From a virus, in IMG/VR virus record IMGVR_UViG_3300028998_000054, positions 1-6,902 of that record: a DNA stretch of 6,902 nucleotides, one strand, 5' to 3'. The notes beneath the pieces are model-generated. The model was not told the origin of the DNA, made no database searches, and was given only the letters and a program-made list of their open reading frames with translations. The translations under genes and the position numbers were made by a program. Shown here in pieces: positions 1-6,902 of the stretch; position 1 is the first letter of the stretch; the number at the start of each line of letters is the position of its first letter.

Positions 1-99
1 CCTACCACAAGCGTGTTCCTTGAACTTTTGGGAATCAAGGGGGTATTCATAAAGATTGGGAAAAAAGCGCTCCCAATCTTTACAAAACTTCCCCCTTGA
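1..99. repeat. Left copy of a terminal direct repeat. Positions 1-99 are identical to 6804-6902. The repeat is truncated by the window edges, so it may be longer.
   Basis: Base-by-base comparison of the first and last 99 nt shows a perfect match. This implies a circular or tandem unit of about 6803 bp. Confidence 0.9.
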
Positions 100-120
100 C
101 ACCCAAAAATTCAATTCCCA
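29..120. repeat. Compound nested inverted repeats. The pairs are TGGGAAT(29-35)/ATTCCCA(114-120), CAAGGGGG(36-43)/CCCCCTTG(91-98) and GATTGGGA(54-61)/TCCCAATC(71-78). This is a candidate ssDNA hairpin such as a packaging signal or minus-strand origin.
   Basis: Three concentric perfect inverted-repeat pairs are read directly from the sequence. The region is non-coding and lies between the end of zot and the regulatory module on the circular map. Confidence 0.5.
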
Positions 121-158
121 AATAAAAAAGGCCGTCTGAAAACAAACGACCTTTTCTG
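120..158 (-). terminator. Probable rho-independent terminator of the leftward structural operon. The hairpin is built from the DUS and a degenerate inverted partner, followed by a U-tract.
   Basis: The minus-strand RNA reads aaaaggucguuuguuuucagacggccuuuuuuauuu. The stem AGGUCG/CGGCCU has one G-U wobble and is extendable with A-U pairs, then comes UUUUUUAUUU. It lies immediately downstream of the stop of the last operon gene (159). Confidence 0.55.
129..140 (+). other. Neisseria DNA uptake sequence, 12-mer AGGCCGTCTGAA (AG-DUS dialect).
   Basis: Exact GCCGTCTGAA core preceded by AG, located 3' of the zot-like gene. Confidence 0.85.
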
Positions 159-1355
159 TTAGTTTGAGCCAACCACACCGCCATTCTGACCAAATTCTTT
201 GCCAGCTTCGACATAGCCGTCATACATCAGATTCTGCTGAGACTTTCCGCCCATAACTAAGACTGAAGAATCAGGTTTACTGACAGATGGTTTCTCAACA
301 ACTTCAGAATTTGATAATTCGTTCCGTTTTTCCTTATACGGATTAAAGGGGAGACCGTTTTTTACATATTCATTACAGGTTTTCTTGTCAATTTCCTTAA
401 TTGCCGACCCTTGCGATGAATAGCAAGAGCACCCCGAATTTCCGCCAGAAATACACGCCACAGGGTATTCCAACTGCTTGACTTGGCGAACATTATCATA
501 AATCGGTTTTGATTCTACAAGCCCGTCAACAGTAGGTTTTAGCATTTCTTCAGTCAAATGCCTATCTTCCCTGCTTGCAAGCTGTTGACCAACCGAGCCA
601 CCAACATTTTGCGAGCTTTTGACGGCCATACGATGGAAATCTTGAGGGGGAGGGCTTTCTATTTGAGACATAGGCAAATTTTGATTATTTGCTACAATCT
701 CTTCTTTTTGCCCCAAGCCTGTCAGCAATTTATAGCCCATAAAGGACGAAATGCCCAACACTAAAAAGGCAATCGGAATAATATATAGAACCCTACTTTT
801 CGGAGTTTTGACTTTAGTGTGTATTTCTGCCGACTTGTAAAGGCCAAATGACTTTTTGTCGAATTTATAGACTTCAGGTCTAGCATTTTTCATACCAGTT
901 TTAGGATTATTTTCACAGTAATCCCAAAAATAACGCATTCTAACGCCAAGTGGTGTTTTGTGGATGTGATAATGCGCCCCAACCAAGTCGCGAACCTGCT
1001 TATCAATTCGACCTGGCATTTGAGTAATCAATATAATATCTACCCCTGAATGTCTGTGCACATGAAGCCATTCTACAATCTCTGGAGTTTTTGAACCGGC
1101 GGAACGTGGCGGGAAAATATTCTGAGCTTCATCAATGACTACGACTGAGCCGTTATTTTCTGGCCATTTGAGCCAAACGTGCATGTCTTGGATTGTATGG
1201 CCATCGGGGATAGGCTCGGTTGGAATCGTCAATTCAGGGATACCGTGAATAAATATTTTCCGACCAGCCCATTCTTTATCTACTTTTTTTGCCAAATCTG
1301 AGACGGCCATTAGTGTCTTGCCAGAGCCTGGAACGCCAGTAATTAAAGTAATCAT
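159..1355 (-). CDS. zot: Zot-like / pI-family filamentous phage assembly ATPase.
   Basis: N-terminal Walker A GVPGSGKT and Walker B VVVIDEAQ. One central transmembrane helix VLYIIPIAFLVLGISSFMGYKLL followed by a C-terminal periplasmic domain. Last gene of the structural operon after the pVI-like gene, as in CTXphi/Ff. Confidence 0.85.
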   Translation of the reverse strand: MITLITGVPGSGKTLMAVSDLAKKVDKEWAGRKIFIHGIPELTIPTEPIPDGHTIQDMHVWLKWPENNGSVVVIDEAQNIFPPRSAGSKTPEIVEWLHVHRHSGVDIILITQMPGRIDKQVRDLVGAHYHIHKTPLGVRMRYFWDYCENNPKTGMKNARPEVYKFDKKSFGLYKSAEIHTKVKTPKSRVLYIIPIAFLVLGISSFMGYKLLTGLGQKEEIVANNQNLPMSQIESPPPQDFHRMAVKSSQNVGGSVGQQLASREDRHLTEEMLKPTVDGLVESKPIYDNVRQVKQLEYPVACISGGNSGCSCYSSQGSAIKEIDKKTCNEYVKNGLPFNPYKEKRNELSNSEVVEKPSVSKPDSSVLVMGGKSQQNLMYDGYVEAGKEFGQNGGVVGSN

Positions 1356-1365
1356 TTCAAAACCT

Positions 1366-1689
1366 CTATTTAATAAATTTTAACGAACGATATGAAGCCC
1401 AAATTCCGAATGAAAAAGAAAATCCGCCAAATATGACGTTCAACGCTTCGGGAATGCCAGCGAGACCCAAAAGCCCGACCAAATCAGCAGGCATGGCGAA
1501 ATAATTGGTTTTTATGTAATCCAAAATTCCATCAAAAGCAAAACCCAACCCCTCATACGAAACAAGCGAGACGCCTAAACCTACAAGAACCTGAAAAAAA
1601 AGTGTCTTTAAAGATGGCAGAAAAGTAACCAAAAGCCTGCCCAAGTAAGACATCAGTACGCGTAAAAGACCAGCAAGAAAAGCAGGCAT
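1366..1689 (-). CDS. pVI-like minor coat / hydrophobic membrane protein.
   Basis: 107 aa, strongly hydrophobic with several predicted TM segments. It sits between the pIII-like and pI-like genes, which is the gVI position in Ff and the ace position in CTXphi. Its start is 3 nt from the pIII stop. Confidence 0.5.
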   Translation of the reverse strand: MPAFLAGLLRVLMSYLGRLLVTFLPSLKTLFFQVLVGLGVSLVSYEGLGFAFDGILDYIKTNYFAMPADLVGLLGLAGIPEALNVIFGGFSFSFGIWASYRSLKFIK

Positions 1690-1692
1690 TTT

Positions 1693-3324
1693 TTATCCTC
1701 TACCACTAAAAGCTTTAAAAACCAACATTGCCGAAATAAAATAAGCCATAAAAATAAAAACATAGCGCAATTTTTCGACGGCCATACAGACATAAGACAT
1801 CGGAAGCTGATGAGTTCCGAATTGCCCAAAATCTAAAGTTATATCTTGAGGACATGCGCCACCTGTACTAAATGCTGATGACGGCTTAAATGTGCCAAAA
1901 TCGCCATTTGATTTAAGACCGCCCCAGTCAGGCTCGCCATCTCCATTACCAAAAGGAGAATCAGGCATTTCAGGCAACTCCGAATCTTGGCCACCACCAC
2001 CACCGCCTGAACCATTCGTTCCACTTGTTCCACTTCCGCCTGTCGTTTCACTTCCACCGCTTCCGCCAGTCGTTCCACTTCCACCGCTTCCGCCAGTCGT
2101 TCCACTTCCACCACTTCCGCCTGTCGTTCCATCTTGACCGCCACCGCCACCATTTCCGCCCCCTTGCTTACCGCTGTCGGGCGTTGTGGCGTGGTCAGCT
2201 CCGCTTCGACCACCGCCACCACCGCCCCCAGCGGATGAGCCATTAGGGCTTGATGATTGTGCGTCTTGTTTATTTGAAGAACTCGAAGAGCCAGTAGAGC
2301 CGACAGTTGAAATTTCTGTTTTCGGTTTGTGTTTATAAGTGCAGACTACTGAAAATGTACCGTTAGATTTCTTGCCAAAGGTCATATTTGAACCCGGGCC
2401 ACAATCCCCATCCTGTGAAGATACTTTATAAGTACTAATACTGGCGGAACCTAAAGGCCTACCACCAGAACTATCAGGCTCATAAACCTGACAAAACGTC
2501 CCCCCGCTAAAATGCTCTTGCATTCTCATTGCCCAACCATTAGAAGTAGTACCAGTACACGCACCTTCTAAAGTATCTGAAACAGCTCCTGTATCATCGT
2601 TTACATAAATATCTTCAACTTTTCTACCAGAACTTCCGCCACCGCCATGACTTCCACCACCGCCACCGCCTGAGCTTCCGCCACCGCCTGAGCTTCCGCC
2701 ACCGCCATGGCTTCCACCACCGCCATTGCTTCCGCCACCGCCATGGCTTCCACCACCGCCATTGCTTCCGCCACCGCCATGGCTTCCACCACCGCCACCA
2801 TTACCATTCGTTCCGTTATTTTTATTTTTTTCCTTTTCTTCTTCCTGACGTCTTTGCTGTTCTTTCTTTACTTGGATTTCTCTCAATAGCTTTTGGTATT
2901 CGTTTTCATCTTCCAAAGCCTTTTTTAGCTTCTCCTTTTCGATTCCAAGCTTTTTTGCGTTTTCGGCCACGTCCTTTTCACCCATACTTATTTTTTTATT
3001 CCCCGAATTATTGGGCAATACATCTTCAATATCAAAGACTTGCATTTCCTGTTTTTTACCCTTTGAACCTTGATACTCAGTTCTATAAAGACACTGGTCT
3101 AGGACACAGGCAACTTTTGTTATTGTGGTAATGTGCGTGATACCTGTTTTTTTATCCAAAATGCCTATTTGTTTCGGCTCCCATAGACTTGTCATATCAT
3201 TGAGGCGTTTATCAGTTCTAAATCCCCAAGTAACATCTCCGACTTTTGCAGTATCTGCAAATGACGGAACAGGAAATAAAAAAGCGACCGCCATTACTGC
3301 GACCGCTAGAAAATTTTTTCTCAT
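1693..3324 (-). CDS. pIII-like minor coat / adsorption protein with Gly-rich linkers.
   Basis: 543 aa. Signal peptide MRKNFLAVAVMAVAFLFPVPSFA and cysteine-containing N-terminal domains. Two long Gly/Ser-rich linker repeats, (GGGGSHGGGGSN)n and (TTGGSGGSG)n. C-terminal membrane anchor YVFIFMAYFISAMLVFKAF. Its position follows the major coat gene. Confidence 0.8.
   Translation of the reverse strand: MRKNFLAVAVMAVAFLFPVPSFADTAKVGDVTWGFRTDKRLNDMTSLWEPKQIGILDKKTGITHITTITKVACVLDQCLYRTEYQGSKGKKQEMQVFDIEDVLPNNSGNKKISMGEKDVAENAKKLGIEKEKLKKALEDENEYQKLLREIQVKKEQQRRQEEEKEKNKNNGTNGNGGGGGSHGGGGSNGGGGSHGGGGSNGGGGSHGGGGSSGGGGSSGGGGGGSHGGGGSSGRKVEDIYVNDDTGAVSDTLEGACTGTTSNGWAMRMQEHFSGGTFCQVYEPDSSGGRPLGSASISTYKVSSQDGDCGPGSNMTFGKKSNGTFSVVCTYKHKPKTEISTVGSTGSSSSSNKQDAQSSSPNGSSAGGGGGGGRSGADHATTPDSGKQGGGNGGGGGQDGTTGGSGGSGTTGGSGGSGTTGGSGGSETTGGSGTSGTNGSGGGGGGQDSELPEMPDSPFGNGDGEPDWGGLKSNGDFGTFKPSSAFSTGGACPQDITLDFGQFGTHQLPMSYVCMAVEKLRYVFIFMAYFISAMLVFKAFSGRG
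2017..2135. repeat. Tandem 27-nt coding repeat, about 4 copies, encoding TTGGSGGSG units of the pIII linker.
   Basis: The unit cgttccacttccaccgcttccgccagt is repeated at 2017, 2044, 2071 and 2098 with minor variants. Confidence 0.8.
2631..2808. repeat. Tandem 36-nt coding repeat (18-nt sub-period in places), about 5 copies, encoding GGGGSHGGGGSN units.
   Basis: The ccatgg motif recurs with a 36-nt period (2705, 2741, 2777), and ccgcctgagcttccgcc is duplicated. Confidence 0.8.
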
Positions 3325-3388
3325 AACTTACCCCTTAAACAAAAAAATCAAAGACAAAGTTGCTAAAAAACCAACGAAAAACGGAAAA

Positions 3389-3691
3389 TCAGTTACCATC
3401 TGAAACACCTGACGAATTAATAAAACGAGCTACAACCCTAAAACAAAACATAATCACAAAAACCAAAACAAATGGCGTTGCAATCTGAGAACCATAGCCC
3501 ATCTGTTCTAAAATCGAACATTCAGGAAAATTTAAAACTACCTTTTCAGGCCCAACAAACCAGTCTTTCCCCTGTTTACGAGGGGCTATCAAATAGCCCT
3601 CAGAATGCAAAACGGGGACAATTTGGGAAACAACATAATCAGTCGCTGTTTCATTAGTCTGAAAGCATTGCAACCCTACACGCGCACCCAT
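3389..3691 (-). CDS. Hypothetical small membrane protein. It may be a minor virion or assembly protein.
   Basis: 100 aa ORF between the major coat and pIII genes in the operon. It has a C-terminal hydrophobic segment IATPFVLVFVIMFCF. No recognisable motif. Confidence 0.45.
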   Translation of the reverse strand: MGARVGLQCFQTNETATDYVVSQIVPVLHSEGYLIAPRKQGKDWFVGPEKVVLNFPECSILEQMGYGSQIATPFVLVFVIMFCFRVVARFINSSGVSDGN

Positions 3692-3706
3692 ATTGCCCCC
3701 AGTTTC

Positions 3707-3922
3707 TTAACCGCGCAGGAAGCTTGAAACCAAACGGAAAGCTTTAATAAGCACGTACACGCCAATCAAAGCAACACCCACAGCAGTTACTACCGGAGCA
3801 ACCTTTGCAAGTTCACCCGTAATACTGGCAGACACATCGCCAATACCTTCGGCCATAGTCAAAGCAGAAGCGGTTGCCAGAGTTGCGCCAACGGCGACTT
3901 TTTTCAGATTTGCGAGTTTCAT
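3707..3922 (-). CDS. pVIII-like major coat protein.
   Basis: 71 aa. Signal peptide ending ALTMA. The mature part (about 47 aa) has an acidic N-terminus (EGIGD), a hydrophobic core (VAPVVTAVGVALIGVYVLI) and a basic C-terminus (KAFRLVSSFLRG). Confidence 0.8.
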   Translation of the reverse strand: MKLANLKKVAVGATLATASALTMAEGIGDVSASITGELAKVAPVVTAVGVALIGVYVLIKAFRLVSSFLRG

Positions 3923-3948
3923 AGTTTTACCTCAAAAATTAATAAAAT

Positions 3949-3968
3949 TCCGCTTTCGGGGGCAAGCG
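3949..3968 (-). other. RNA hairpin between the ssDNA-binding gene and the coat gene, CCGCTT-N8-AAGCGG.
   Basis: Perfect 6-bp inverted repeat with a G-rich 8-nt loop in the 59-nt intergenic gap. Confidence 0.3.
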
Positions 3969-3981
3969 GACAGCCCTAAAA

Positions 3982-4293
3982 TTATTTCTGCGGATTGCTT
4001 TCTTTTTTGATATTCACAGGCTGGATGTCAACAATCACGTTTTGAACGCGATTACCGTTAGTCTGTACTTCAATATCGATTTCCGCTTCAAACGGCAATG
4101 GAATGCCGTTGAATTTTTCAAAATTTTCAGAAGTACCGAATTTCATCGGCTCGGTTGCTGAGCCACGCATATCAGCGTTATCACGCGCAAATGGAAACTC
4201 GACATAAACCGTTGTCGAATCATAGGCCTTGCCTGTATCGTTCATCACGCCTTTGGAACGTTTCAAGCCTTGCACCTTAGCGAACATTTTCAT
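3982..4293 (-). CDS. Probable ssDNA-binding protein (gene V / RstB analogue).
   Basis: 103 aa hydrophilic ORF immediately downstream of rep and upstream of the major coat gene. Size and position match filamentous phage ssDNA-binding proteins. No sequence motif confirms this. Confidence 0.5.
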   Translation of the reverse strand: MKMFAKVQGLKRSKGVMNDTGKAYDSTTVYVEFPFARDNADMRGSATEPMKFGTSENFEKFNGIPLPFEAEIDIEVQTNGNRVQNVIVDIQPVNIKKESNPQK

Positions 4294-4324
4294 TTTTAAA
4301 ACTACCTTCCTGCCTTTTTAGGCT

Positions 4325-5548
4325 TTAGTGATTTAAATAGATTTCTCTATCTTCCAAAACCATGCCGTAATCATCAATCAATTCCAACTCAATAGAATCT
4401 TTATATTCGTCATGGATAAATTCTAAATACCGCTTATCTTGCAGAGCATAAGACGCGGGATTTACTCTTTCTGGCAACGAGCCATCTTTTCTTTTAAGGC
4501 ATTCAACAATTTCCGAATCCGACATTCCCAGTTGCAACATCATATTAATTGCACGGCCTGCCTGATTACTTGCGACTTCCTTAACTCTTTCTATTGAAAT
4601 CTCAAGTCTTTTTAATGCTGAAACCGTTCTTTCCGTTGAACCTTTTTCCTGAAATTTCTCGCATATCGGAAATGCGCCACCCCAAAACTGACCGGGGAAA
4701 AGAAGAATATCTAAAGGAAGAATACAATTCCGACCCATGAATTGAAGCTCAAATCGGCACCAATTAACGCCTGAAACGTCACCTTGCTCTTTAGCTTTGT
4801 CATAAATTCGCGCATAACATGATGACTGTTTAGAGCCTATGCCCAACGTCTTACCTGTATTCGTATCATTCAACCAATCAGACCCAATTTGCGAAACCAA
4901 AGGTTTTTTTCCGCGCTTATTAAACTCTCCATTGTTATAGGAAACCCAAGCAGAATCGGGCGAAATTTCGCATTCGAAAAAATCTTTTGCTATATCACAA
5001 CGCGTTATTTTGGGATTTTTCGCAAACATCAAAAATTTATATAACCGCTTTTCCCAGCCGTCTAAAGCAACATTGCAACCTTTACCGCTCAACTCAATCA
5101 AAAGGGTGTCATTCTGACCGCCGATATAGACTTGACCATACAGAACGCCATCAACCGAAATTTCCCATCGTTGTCCATAAAATCGACCCTTTCCGACCGG
5201 AGCAGGGGACGACACGCCGAACCCAAATATAAACTCTGAAATTTCCGACCAATTCCTTATAACGTCATAGTCAGAAATCGGCGTTGAGATTCCTACTTGC
5301 TTACCGTCAACACAAAAACCAGTCACTGACGATTCGTGGAAAGTGAAGCTCAGCGTATCAATAAAAGCCGAGTTACCCAGCCCCTTACGAAGAGGAACGG
5401 CTTTAATATTGCCGTCATAGTCAATAACGTACTTTTCATAACGTTCGTATTCTTGAGCTTCGCAGTAACTGTCTGAATCTCGACCCCCCCTGTTAGATAG
5501 GGGGGGGGCATAAGCCCCAGAGGTTTTAAGCTGTTCAATCTTTCTCAT
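4325..5548 (-). CDS. Rolling-circle replication initiation protein (Rep_trans / RstA-like).
   Basis: 407 aa, first large gene of the leftward operon next to the divergent promoter region. Its length, position and sequence character fit phage replication initiation factors of Neisseria and Vibrio filamentous phages. This family assignment is from memory, not a search. Confidence 0.7.
   Translation of the reverse strand: MRKIEQLKTSGAYAPPLSNRGGRDSDSYCEAQEYERYEKYVIDYDGNIKAVPLRKGLGNSAFIDTLSFTFHESSVTGFCVDGKQVGISTPISDYDVIRNWSEISEFIFGFGVSSPAPVGKGRFYGQRWEISVDGVLYGQVYIGGQNDTLLIELSGKGCNVALDGWEKRLYKFLMFAKNPKITRCDIAKDFFECEISPDSAWVSYNNGEFNKRGKKPLVSQIGSDWLNDTNTGKTLGIGSKQSSCYARIYDKAKEQGDVSGVNWCRFELQFMGRNCILPLDILLFPGQFWGGAFPICEKFQEKGSTERTVSALKRLEISIERVKEVASNQAGRAINMMLQLGMSDSEIVECLKRKDGSLPERVNPASYALQDKRYLEFIHDEYKDSIELELIDDYGMVLEDREIYLNH
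5484..5508. repeat. Homopolymer pair C7 (5484-5490) and G9 (5500-5508) separated by TGTTAGATA. On the coding strand this is C9...G7 within rep codons 15-22.
   Basis: Read directly. The pair forms a 7-bp G/C stem with a 9-nt loop and encodes PPLSNRGG near the Rep N-terminus. Confidence 0.9.
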
Positions 5549-5750
5549 TTAGCAACCCCAAATCCTCTTTTTCCAAGCCATAAGAAACAGGAATTGCAAT
5601 ACCAGCAACAACCCAGACTTCCGCACGAGAAACAGCAAGAACTTGAGAGCAATCATGAAAATATAACGTATTCAACAAAACGTTATTTTCACGACATTCA
5701 ACGCGCCATCCTGCCTCTTCTTGAATCACTTTTGCACTACGCTTTTTCAT
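5535..5750 (-). CDS. Small hypothetical protein upstream of rep. Its stop overlaps the rep start by 14 nt.
   Basis: 71 aa ORF with AAAGG 7 nt upstream of its ATG. It runs in the same direction as rep. An alternative antisense ORF exists (5594-5854 +), so this call is uncertain. Confidence 0.4.
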   Translation of the reverse strand: MKKRSAKVIQEEAGWRVECRENNVLLNTLYFHDCSQVLAVSRAEVWVVAGIAIPVSYGLEKEDLGLLNEKD

Positions 5751-5904
5751 GTTTTGACCTTTTTACAACACATAACTGTTATTTGCATTCATGCATGCAT
5801 TTTTGGCATTGTATTCATGTATGCAAATATGCACAATACAAATATGCTTGTTAACAAGTAACGCCTTGTTTTATATTGCATAAAAGTTTTAGGAAAAATG
5901 ACGC
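5751..5904. promoter_or_regulatory. Divergent promoter/operator region between the leftward rep-structural operon and the rightward regulatory module.
   Basis: AT-rich 154-bp gap. Palindrome ATGCATGCAT (5791-5800) and direct repeats CAAATATGC at 5824 and 5839. Perfect 12-bp palindrome CTTGTTAACAAG (5847-5858) overlaps a -35-like TTGTTA, with a -10-like TATATT at 5872-5877. AGGA at 5891-5894 lies 10 nt before the ATG at 5905. Confidence 0.55.
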
Positions 5905-6093
5905 ATGAAATCACTGAGAATCAAAGAAGAGCAGGAAGAGAGCATTAGACGGCTTGCCATCAATGCCAATAAGAAACTGATACAGCTTGGGCGCGAACCG
6001 CTGAAAGACAGCGAGCTTGCCCATATACTTCTAAACGAAGCAATCAAACGCGCCTACATCGGCGAAGACGGCGAAATCACGATTAAGAAATAA
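5905..6093 (+). CDS. Small putative DNA-binding regulator, with a possible ribbon-helix-helix-like fold.
   Basis: 62 aa. N-terminal short beta-like segment (KSLRIK) followed by two predicted helices. First gene after the divergent operator. Its stop overlaps the next ORF's start in TAATG. Confidence 0.45.
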   Translation: MKSLRIKEEQEESIRRLAINANKKLIQLGREPLKDSELAHILLNEAIKRAYIGEDGEITIKK

Positions 6094-6314
6094 TGAAATC
6101 CTTAAAAAATCTATTGCTTATTTCAATAGGCTTTTCAATCGGTTATTTCACTGGATTCATACAAGGGGAATCAAAGGCAATTGAATGCCTAAAGACCCAA
6201 AAACCGACAGAGCTAAACTTATACTGTCTTTTTTCTTCCCCCAACGTCGAATTTATCGAACTGGACAAACTCGAAGAAACAAACCTACAAAATAAGGAGC
6301 AAACGCTCAAATAG
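6093..6314 (+). CDS. Small single-pass membrane protein of unknown function.
   Basis: 73 aa with N-terminal TM helix LLLISIGFSIGYFTGFI. Translationally coupled to the upstream ORF through a 1-nt overlap. Confidence 0.45.
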   Translation: MKSLKNLLLISIGFSIGYFTGFIQGESKAIECLKTQKPTELNLYCLFSSPNVEFIELDKLEETNLQNKEQTLK

Positions 6315-6338
6315 AGAGCGTTTGCTCATTGAATTAAA

Positions 6339-6361
6339 ATAAGCCCCGGAAAGGGGCTTAT
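6339..6361 (+). promoter_or_regulatory. Stable hairpin ATAAGCCCC-GGAAA-GGGGCTTAT (9-bp stem) that ends 1 nt before the start codon of the HTH gene.
   Basis: Perfect inverted repeat. The 3' arm contains the only SD-like sequence, AAGGGG, 6 nt before the ATG at 6363. No T-tract follows on the plus strand, so it is more likely a translational or processing element than a simple terminator. Confidence 0.5.
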
Positions 6362-6362
6362 C

Positions 6363-6692
6363 ATGGCAACACAATCTGAACTCATCGACCAAATCAAAGA
6401 CAGGCTTTTTATACTGTCTGACTATGCTTTATCTCAACGCTGGCAAGTAGAGCCGACCCGAATCAGCCAATACCGACGCGACCGTCTGCGACTTCCTATT
6501 CGGTTTATTGAGGACATTGCCGAACAAATCGGCATTGACGCGCTATCACTTATAAAAATGCTTGATACGGCGCGACTTACCAAGCAAAACAAGGACGCCT
6601 CAAAAATCTTATTCTGGCGACCAAACGAAAAAGTCAGACGTTATCCGCCACCATGGGTAGAGCGAAAACACTTTTTCAGACGAAAACGCTAG
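6363..6692 (+). CDS. CI/XRE-type helix-turn-helix regulator, a candidate phage repressor analogous to RstR, with a strongly basic C-terminal tail.
   Basis: 109 aa. Residues about 18-45 (LSDYALSQRWQVEPTRISQYRRDR) fit an HTH helix2-turn-helix3 pattern, followed by further helices (IRFIEDIAEQIGIDALSLIKML). C-terminus RKHFFRRKR. It is divergent from rep and adjacent to the att-like site, like rstR in CTXphi. Confidence 0.5.
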   Translation: MATQSELIDQIKDRLFILSDYALSQRWQVEPTRISQYRRDRLRLPIRFIEDIAEQIGIDALSLIKMLDTARLTKQNKDASKILFWRPNEKVRRYPPPWVERKHFFRRKR

Positions 6693-6719
6693 TTCGCATA
6701 ATTTGTCGTTTCGTCAAAT
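6691..6719 (+). other. dif-like site (candidate XerCD attP). AGTTCGCATAAT matches the XerC arm plus the first central base of Neisseria dif, followed by a degenerate XerD-side arm.
   Basis: AGTTCGCATAA TTTGTC(G) TTTCGTCAAAT compared with Neisseria dif AGTTCGCATAA TGTATA TTATGTTAAAT as recalled from memory. The XerC arm matches 11/11. The central region matches 3/6. The XerD arm matches 8/11 only if the spacer is 7 nt. Confidence 0.5.
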
Positions 6720-6760
6720 TTTCCAAAAACTACAAACTCTTTTTGTCTTCGACGACGTTC

Positions 6761-6802
6761 GCCACGTGGCAGGCGGGCAGGAAATAAAACCCTTTCCTGC
6801 CC
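6761..6802. repeat. Perfect 10-bp palindrome GCCACGTGGC (6761-6770), then a hairpin with a perfect 10-bp stem, GGGCAGGAAA (6775-6784) / TTTCCTGCCC (6793-6802), and an 8-nt loop.
   Basis: Read directly from the sequence. It is non-coding, lies just before the terminal repeat, and is part of the structured intergenic region. Confidence 0.8.
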
Positions 6803-6803
6803 A

Positions 6804-6902
6804 CCTACCACAAGCGTGTTCCTTGAACTTTTGGGAATCAAGGGGGTATTCATAAAGATTGGGAAAAAAGCGCTCCCAATCTTTACAAAACTTCCCCCTT
6901 GA
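6804..6902. repeat. Right copy of the terminal direct repeat. It is identical to 1-99.
   Basis: Perfect 99/99 identity with the window start. Confidence 0.9.

Follow-up and report, generated by a model that had tools for sequence, protein, structure and literature searches.

The question raised by the viral DNA examined here (IMG/VR record IMGVR_UViG_3300028998_000054, positions 1 to 6,902, referred to below, at its full length, as the window) is how a filamentous phage that lacks any recognizable integration enzyme enters the chromosome of its host. Pfam and PHROG scans of the complete genome detected no integrase, transposase or recombinase domain in any sizeable open reading frame (ORF), in agreement with the original prediction, which was made from the nucleotide sequence alone. 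At the end of the gene for a 109-aa helix-turn-helix (HTH) protein, the window contains, at positions 6691-6719, a site resembling dif, the dimer-resolution site of the host chromosome. The observations described here make it highly probable that this site serves as the attachment site (attP) for a 6.8-kb filamentous phage that lives in commensal Neisseria (N. subflava / N. flavescens group), and that the phage recombines with the host dif via the pathway used by VGJphi, one of the integrative mobile elements exploiting Xer (IMEX).

The site reads AGTTCGCATAATTTGTCGTTTCGTCAAAT, or AGTTCGCATAA / TTTGTCG / TTTCGTCAAAT, that is, 29 bp arranged as 11+7+11: an XerC-binding arm, an overlap (central) region and a degenerate XerD-like arm. 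As had been noticed in the original prediction, the site overlaps the stop codon of the HTH gene (TAG, 6690-6692), with which it shares its first two bases, and the Neisseria dif sequence given there is that published for N. meningitidis MC58, AGTTCGCATAATGTATATTATGTTAAAT (Carnoy & Roten 2009, PMC2731167). The proposed 12-nt identity to dif (AGTTCGCATAAT) holds for the meningococcal site but not for the actual hosts, in which the overlap region is TTTATA and the identity comes to 14 nt (AGTTCGCATAATTT). The window contains a single copy of the 12-mer, which did not appear in any of 200 dinucleotide-preserving shuffles. On the XerD side, a register scan yielded 8/11 matches to TTATGTTAAAT at a 7-nt spacing versus 5/11 at 6 or 8 nt, as the prediction had held; the background rate of matches this good or better (8/11 or more) is 0.3% of the genome positions. 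The XerD-like arm still matches at 8/11 positions in the variant prophage of contig L007, although the DNA beyond the arm is unrelated. The overlap region differs from the host dif at three of six positions, all on the XerD side, and its homology to dif is confined to the bases adjacent to the XerC arm (TTT/GTCG versus TTT/ATA). The phage-specific part of attP (6699-6722) also forms an imperfect palindrome, AATTTGTCG TTT CGTCAAATT, that is complementary at 8/9 positions and gives a small local hairpin when the DNA is single-stranded; XerD or the HTH protein could bind here, or the palindrome may have come about by coincidence from dif-like symmetry.

Exact copies of the HTH protein sequence were located in 10 places distributed over 7 contigs, one of which is a 2.3-Mb contig of GCA_023635085.1. 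In every place read, the phage resides at one chromosomal locus, to the right of a conserved block of PNP_UDP_1, homoserine dehydrogenase and DUF498 genes; the prophage often consists of two tandem copies, and its right flank is variable. Both junctions with the chromosome, attL and attR, were read in the 7 independent contigs (10 places), always at this locus. The attL junction is a hybrid site in which the host XerC arm is followed by the overlap region and XerD-like arm of the phage: host flank, (A/G)(G/A)TTCGCATAA, TTTGTC(G/A) TTTCGTCAA(A/T)T, and then the phage. By contrast, attR consists of the end of the HTH gene followed by AGTTCGCATAA TTTATA TTATGTTAAAT and the host flank, so that an intact dif is regenerated, and the junction between tandem copies is identical to attP. 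From attL to attR, the prophages are colinear over the full length with the window rotated at attP, with 84-95% identity depending on the strain. The ends of the prophage coincide with attP, and there is no transposase either within the element or just outside it; thus, the situation that the prediction had named as capable of refuting it, insertion at dRS3 or IS110-type targets with a transposase gene beyond the window, is not the one encountered.

The unoccupied counterpart of this locus came from a pattern scan for dif in genome contigs, most of the matches being dif sites of unrelated Proteobacteria. Among the matches listed, the empty site (attB), AGTTCGCATAA TTTATA TTATGTTAAAT, is found in N. 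flavescens CD-NF2 and CD-NF3, N. subflava C2011009653 and Neisseria metagenome-assembled genomes, and it is bordered on the left by the flank of attL and on the right by that of attR, as read in the lysogens. This dif of N. subflava and N. flavescens is one overlap base away from the published N. meningitidis dif, in agreement with the description of an N. subflava dif that has an identical XerD arm and one different base in the core (PMC10210955). With attP present in the free circles represented by the window and the saliva-virome genomes OR148965/6, all four attachment sites (attB, attP, attL and attR) were recovered from public assemblies; a protein-seeded scan of genome contigs with the HTH protein confirmed no relative. 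The comparison with the host chromosome that the prediction had proposed thus bears out its central claim, a prophage at the chromosomal dif between a hybrid attL and a complete attR. The element shows three features that characterize an IMEX, namely, no integrase or transposase of its own, a dif-like attP in which XerC (11/11) and XerD-like (8/11) arms surround an overlap of 7 nt, within the 6-8 bp typical of such sites, and a location at dif between a hybrid site and dif.

Natural allele differences between phage and host sites locate the crossover without experiment. At empty sites, the host XerC arm can alternatively be GATTCGCATAA (GATTCG) or GGTTCGCATAA (GGTTCG); of 15 metagenome hits with such variant-arm empty sites, 12 have the conserved hom-DUF498 left flank and none contains phage DNA. 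In lysogens with the GA (L003, L005, L149) or the GG (L010, L148) variant, the host allele is retained in attL, and both attR and the tandem junction have the phage allele, AG. The overlap region is that of the phage in 9/9 attL sites and that of the host in all attR sites (TTTATA in the lineage of the window). Because the arm alleles stay on the left in attL and the overlap region travels with the XerD side, the exchange is placed within TTCGCATAA/TTT, an interval that comprises the inner XerC arm and the first three overlap bases and includes the XerC cleavage position, given that XerC cuts between its arm and the overlap region (PMC4246890). Integration, as read from these junctions, swaps the XerC arm of the working dif of the host for that of the phage; rewriting of the XerC arm by phage has likewise been recently reported for difI variants of V. 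cholerae.

These junctions also bear on the notion that integration is independent of Xer and is carried out by an unrecognized phage recombinase, by a transposase of the kind found in the Nf phages acting in trans, or by homologous recombination over the 14 bp. Several small ORFs of the phage have no assigned function and IS110-type transposases are common in related oral inoviruses, yet the target is the core of dif, independent lineages, in more than one species, have the crossover where the XerC arm meets the overlap region, and a single locus is occupied in all places read versus the many loci, at dRS3 repeats, of the Nf phages. No ORF contains a recombinase domain, and 14 bp is too short for RecA-dependent recombination, so we consider Xer-independent integration scarcely credible.

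The closest parallel to the site and its junctions is VGJphi, in which attP is a single 29-bp duplex with homology to dif only beside the XerC arm, integration takes XerC catalysis alone, replication resolves the product, and the process is reversible (PMC5357621, PMC4246890). In the VGJphi record, attP is ACTTCGCATTA TGTCGGC TTATGGTAAAA, again 11+7+11, with an overlap region to be compared with TGTATG of dif1. The VGJ-type pathway is favoured because the window has the same 11+7+11 layout and the same overlap pattern of three homologous and four non-homologous bases, and because its HTH gene belongs to the families of VGJphi ORF154. With VGJphi and the VGJ-type IMEXs in general (Fibrovirus; f237, VEJ and fs1-like phages), the phage shares the combination of an integrase-free inovirus genome and a single 29-bp duplex attP, here with a 7-bp overlap and homology beside the XerC arm only. 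With VGJphi itself, it further shares the regeneration of dif on integration, the occurrence of single or multiple prophages, and the position of attP at the 3' end of a homologous HTH gene (in VGJphi, inside the 3' coding part of ORF154). The differences are that the host of the window phage is a betaproteobacterium, that its XerC arm reproduces that of the host without mismatch whereas the XerD-like arm is weaker than that of VGJphi (8/11 versus 9/11), and that a homologue of ORF136 (XafV) is missing downstream of attP. The replication initiator (Rep) is only a distant relative, about 29% identical to those of other Vibrio inoviruses, and VGJphi is not among the best 30 of the 89 matches listed.

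Under the VGJphi-type pathway, the double-stranded replicative form of the phage would recombine with dif with no recombinase of its own. Host XerC and XerD would bind attP and dif, XerC would act first and exchange one pair of strands, the non-homologous XerD-side part of the overlap region would block the second exchange, and replication would resolve the resulting junction. As the sequences of the lysogens show, the rebuilt dif in attR can accept another copy, giving rise to tandem prophages. The invariable segregation of the overlap region with the XerD side is consistent with an exchange by XerC only.

The same segregation pattern counts against a complete, two-step Xer recombination in which XerD acts first, either TLCphi-like, with a phage-encoded factor, or in the manner of the gonococcal genetic island (GGI), with FtsK: exchange of both strands through a heteroduplex should yield both kinds of overlap region in attL and attR, instead of the uniform junctions found. 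A degenerate XerD arm is a trait of TLCphi and the GGI as well, GGI-like islands occupy the same dif, and the HTH protein, with its extra conserved C-terminal segment, is encoded beside attP, as is XafT, which combines an XRE-type HTH with a second domain. However, the overlap regions of TLCphi and the GGI are homologous to dif, that of TLCphi being identical to it, whereas the overlap region of the window phage departs from the host dif at half of the positions; moreover, TLCphi encodes a DUF3653 (XafT) factor, a domain for which the window gave no match even at E values up to 10. The GGI, a known IMEX of Neisseria, resembles the phage in integrating at the Neisseria dif and in the make-up of its own site, where the XerC arm is perfect and the XerD arm degenerate, and GGI-like ParA/ParB islands adjoin the dif used by the phage, but it is a 57-kb conjugative-type island with an overlap region homologous to dif and an XerD-first, FtsK-dependent mechanism (PMC5357621), in contrast to a 6.8-kb phage with a non-homologous XerD-side overlap. 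We therefore regard XerD-first recombination of this phage as distinctly improbable.

The original prediction likened the gene layout to that of CTXphi. The likeness stands insofar as both are Xer-exploiting inoviruses with an RstA/RstB-type replication module, a divergent regulator and tandem arrays at dif; it fails for the site itself, one duplex attP as in VGJphi, whereas CTXphi integrates irreversibly through a folded single-strand site of about 150 nt made from two inverted attP sequences. Compatibility in CTXphi is likewise decided by homology on the XerC side of the overlap region (PMC4246890). Integration of the window phage as a folded single strand, with a hairpin formed by two inverted dif-like half-sites, would agree with the RstA/RstB-like module, with the common occurrence of tandem prophages and with the strong hairpins that adjoin attP. 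Nevertheless, the inverted half-site that the prediction had proposed to look for was not detected: the next-best match to the XerC arm in the window, with two mismatches, lies within zot at a distance of some 900 nt and is no better than expected by chance. When the single strand is folded, attP pairs with no partner site and the adjacent hairpins contain no dif-like sequence; moreover, both arms, 7 nt apart, are already present in the duplex attP. A CTXphi-type route is, in our assessment, very unlikely.

Several considerations weigh against the VGJphi-type reading that we prefer. The match of the XerD-like arm is weak (8/11) and falls in a register that depends on the lineage (7 nt here, 8 nt in two others), so that binding of XerD to it is an assumption. 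The dependence of integration on XerC and XerD, and the order in which they would act, are deduced from the junctions, and the dif of the N. subflava group is assigned by its sequence and by published annotation. The free circles may have arisen either by Xer excision or by rolling-circle replication over tandem copies. Finally, according to a 2026 preprint, the attP of VGJphi integrates poorly by itself and needs an adjacent phage factor, XafV (ORF136), and Pfam, PHROG, BLASTP and hhalign comparisons revealed no homologue of XafV or XafT (DUF3653) among the proteins of the window.

The protein encoded beside attP is most likely a repressor or regulator of the phage, homologous to ORF154 of VGJphi. 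It matches PHROG 4441, 638 and 34897, the same three families as ORF154, and the two proteins align in hhalign with an E value of 1.3e-4 over the HTH. An AlphaFold model (pLDDT 79) compared with viral structures in Foldseek retrieved only generic CI/Cro-type HTH matches, with E values above 0.02. Residues 85-109 (6615-6689), just upstream of attP in the gene, are the part outside the HTH that is most conserved across homologues of 52-93% identity, and the structure of this segment is predicted with low confidence; W85, P87, N88, Y94, P96, W98 and V99 are invariant, so that the XRE-type HTH is followed by the invariant tail motif W-x-P-N...Y-x-P-x-W-V. An identification of this protein with XafV is not supported (BLASTP E value of 0.56 and hhalign probability of 0.2% against VGJphi ORF136, which belongs to PHROG 1668, a family matched by no protein of the window), nor is one with XafT, given that Pfam gave nothing for it, DUF3653 included. 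Conceivably, though we think it unlikely, the 109-aa protein could represent a new family of Xer activation factors, with a role for XerC in Neisseria comparable to that of XafV in Vibrio. Should this be the case, its action could extend in trans to the GGI-like and vgrG islands that are stacked at the same dif; the integration mechanism of the GGI has been called long elusive in the literature.

Diverged relatives of the HTH protein (52-93% identity) are encoded in N. yangbaofengii, N. weixii, N. perflava and metagenomes, and in all these lineages, the stop codon of the HTH gene overlaps or abuts a dif-like arm that ends in CGCATAA. The complete chromosome of N. yangbaofengii contains a tandem prophage with the attP GATTCGCATAA TGTCTGG... 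and the attR GATTCGCATAA TGTATA TTATGTTAAAT; its attL has a third arm allele, ATTTCG, as opposed to the phage allele GATTCG, and the overlap regions (TGT/CTGG versus the host TGT/ATA) are homologous on the XerC side only. The overlap triplet co-varies with the host, being TTT where the host has TTTATA and TGT for the TGTATA of N. yangbaofengii, a suggestive correspondence drawn from the sequences of few lineages. In the lineage of contigs L171-L173, attP and attR are on separate contigs and the best spacing is 8 nt. In N. perflava 327A (L021, 796-868), the HTH gene of a third lineage (...NHFNQY*) is separated by 1 nt from a complete dif whose overlap is TGTATA; this is the attR of another dif-integrating inovirus. 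Contigs L164 and L165, which match the latter lineage, break exactly at the XerC arm, showing that short-read assemblies are often fragmented at dif by these prophages. With the HTH protein present in 206 indexed blocks of the assembly collection, the dif-integrating strategy is widespread in oral commensals.

The described filamentous phages of Neisseria (Nf1-4, MDAphi) use their own IS110-type transposase. Nf1-Nf4 (MDAphi, NgoPhi6-9) are Neisseria inoviruses that have in common with the window a TspB-like adsorption protein, Zot, coat protein B and a Rep_trans initiator but encode an IS110/Piv-type transposase and insert at dRS3 repeats in variable loci, whereas the window phage lacks a transposase and is found only at dif, a strategy that differs from those described, as had been anticipated. 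Sister inoviruses from the oral cavity, with Rep proteins 33-41% identical to that of the window, include six genomes (OR148970, 74, 75, 76, 82 and 83) with a transposase gene between zot and rep, where the window has the HTH operon and attP. All three of the sister transposases that were tested are of the IS110 type (DEDD_Tnp_IS110 and Transposase_20), and the sister genomes with a transposase contain no dif-like arm with fewer than two mismatches. The overall picture suggests a swap of the integration module on a shared inovirus backbone.

The nearest deposited relatives of the window phage are the saliva-virome inoviruses D_HF3_19, D_HF1_11 and D_HF7_9 (OR148965-OR148967), which are 89-92% identical to it in nucleotide sequence and 98% in Rep; their attP is identical, and all three were recovered as free circular genomes; in these records and the accompanying paper (PMC10537320), no att site is annotated, the Neisseria host is only predicted and integration is not discussed. 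Another oral inovirus without an integrase, 'phage 4' of Haemophilus, has been reported at the dif of its host (bioRxiv 10.1101/633727); it comes from a different genus, the report contains no analysis of junctions or crossover, and no sequence relatedness to the window is shown. No prior description of a dif-integrating filamentous phage of Neisseria was found in the literature, with incomplete coverage of subscription journals.

The genome that carries attP is a circular assembly of 6803 bp, in which positions 1-99 are identical to 6804-6902 (a direct repeat of 100% identity at a spacing of 6803), and not, as the prediction had supposed, a unit of about 6.8 kb with junctions. The features are listed in Table 1. 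The traits of Inoviridae (Tubulavirales) are present, namely, a small circle, Zot/pI, coat protein B, a pVI-like protein, an adsorption protein and a rolling-circle initiator, and the near relatives have been deposited as Inovirus. The inovirus core genes all lie on the minus strand, and a three-gene operon (62, 73 and 109 aa) lies on the other.

Table 1. Features of the 6,902-nt window, with their positions, strand and the basis of assignment
Feature	Position	Strand	Basis or remark
Terminal overlap, 99 nt	1..99		repeats 6804-6902; marks circular assembly
Virion and assembly gene block	159..3922	-	Pfam matches
Zot/pI	159-1355	-	Pfam Zot
pVI-like DUF2523 protein	1366-1689	-	Pfam DUF2523
TspB-like pIII, adsorption protein	1693-3324	-	Pfam Neisseria_TspB (weak)
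ORF in virion/assembly block	3389-3691	-	between pIII and coat B
Coat protein B	3707-3922	-	Pfam Phage_Coat_B
RstB-like single-stranded-DNA-binding protein	3982..4293	-	PHROG 4994 and 929 (RstB); RstB annotation in OR148965/6
RstA-like rolling-circle initiator (rep)	4325-5548	-	Pfam Rep_trans, E 5e-26; PHROG 453, E 1e-62
Small ORF of replication module	5535-5750	-	module spans 4325..5750
Divergent control region between rep-side and regulator-side operons	5751..5904		154-nt gap; holds inverted repeat
62-aa ORF	5905-6093	+	PHROG 5642 (function not assigned); called as gene in prophage copies
73-aa ORF	6093-6314	+	upstream of HTH gene, same operon; called as gene in prophage copies
109-aa XRE/CI-like HTH protein	6363..6692	+	PHROG 4441, 638, 34897; stop overlaps attP
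XerC-binding arm of attP, AGTTCGCATAA	6691..6701	+	11/11 vs N. meningitidis dif and empty host dif
Overlap (central) region TTTGTCG	6702..6708	+	TTT (6702-6704) as in host TTTATA; last 4 nt differ
Degenerate XerD-like arm, TTTCGTCAAAT	6709..6719	+	8/11 vs TTATGTTAAAT
Strong hairpin, attP-to-zot intergenic	6766..6811		inverted repeat; single-stranded DNA fold z-score -7.9
Second nested hairpin	6823..6902, running over circular junction to 114		inverted repeats and single-stranded DNA fold

Among the non-coding elements, the strong hairpin between attP and zot is a candidate packaging signal or complementary-strand origin. The divergent control region contains a 20-nt inverted repeat (5780-5799 / 5810-5829, TATTTGCATTCATGCATGCA / TGTATTCATGTATGCAAATA; 85% complementary), a candidate operator by virtue of its position. 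The sole DNA uptake sequence (DUS) of the genome, AGGCCGTCTGAA at 129-140, lies inside a terminator-like hairpin (125-160) that follows the zot stop codon; it is of the AG type, which we take to be the dialect of the N. subflava/sicca group, and fits a host with this dialect.

Variation among the prophage copies was noted in two genes. Near its 5' end (5484-5508, minus strand), rep contains an inverted pair of homopolymers, C7-TGTTAGATA-G9; in the second tandem prophage copy of L007 (16027), the latter tract is G8, with the result that rep is frameshifted and called as 366 aa versus 407 aa, which could reflect either phase variation of replication by slipped-strand mispairing or a homopolymer error in long-read assembly. 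The pIII gene contains two long tracts (1990-2230 and 2600-2815) of 18- and 27-nt tandem repeats that encode Gly/Ser-rich linkers (GGGGSH/N, GGSGGSGTT), and because the length of pIII ranges from 497 to 565 aa across the prophage copies, expansion and contraction of these repeats is suggested. In several related Neisseria inoviruses, a gene for a TonB C-terminal domain adjoins the HTH gene within the regulatory module (L164, 2690-3274; L166, 1031-1408; L157, accession OR148983, 1113-1619), and the window phage has the 73-aa ORF in this position.

The variable right flank of the locus shows what else is found at this dif. A GGI-like island (ParA/CbiA, ParB_N, DUF2857, AcaB, SSB and topoisomerase) begins directly to the right of the intact dif (L004, 10446-20330; L005, 17574-20330; L009, 10446-17585) and is found both with the phage and, in L135, without it, and other right flanks contain RHS/VgrG clusters of type VI effectors (L003, L006-L008), which have been described as bordered by dif-like sites with variant XerC arms (PMC10210955). 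The dif of these commensals looks like a stacking point for several types of elements. The principle of Xer exploitation is not new, such inoviruses being well known in Vibrio, Xanthomonas and other genera, and the present finding extends the mechanism to Neisseria, where it amounts to a second integration strategy among inoviruses. The phage is a small, tractable substrate for the study of Xer recombination in Neisseria, and its integration at dif is relevant to the accumulation of phages, GGI-like islands and islands of type VI effectors at a single chromosomal site.

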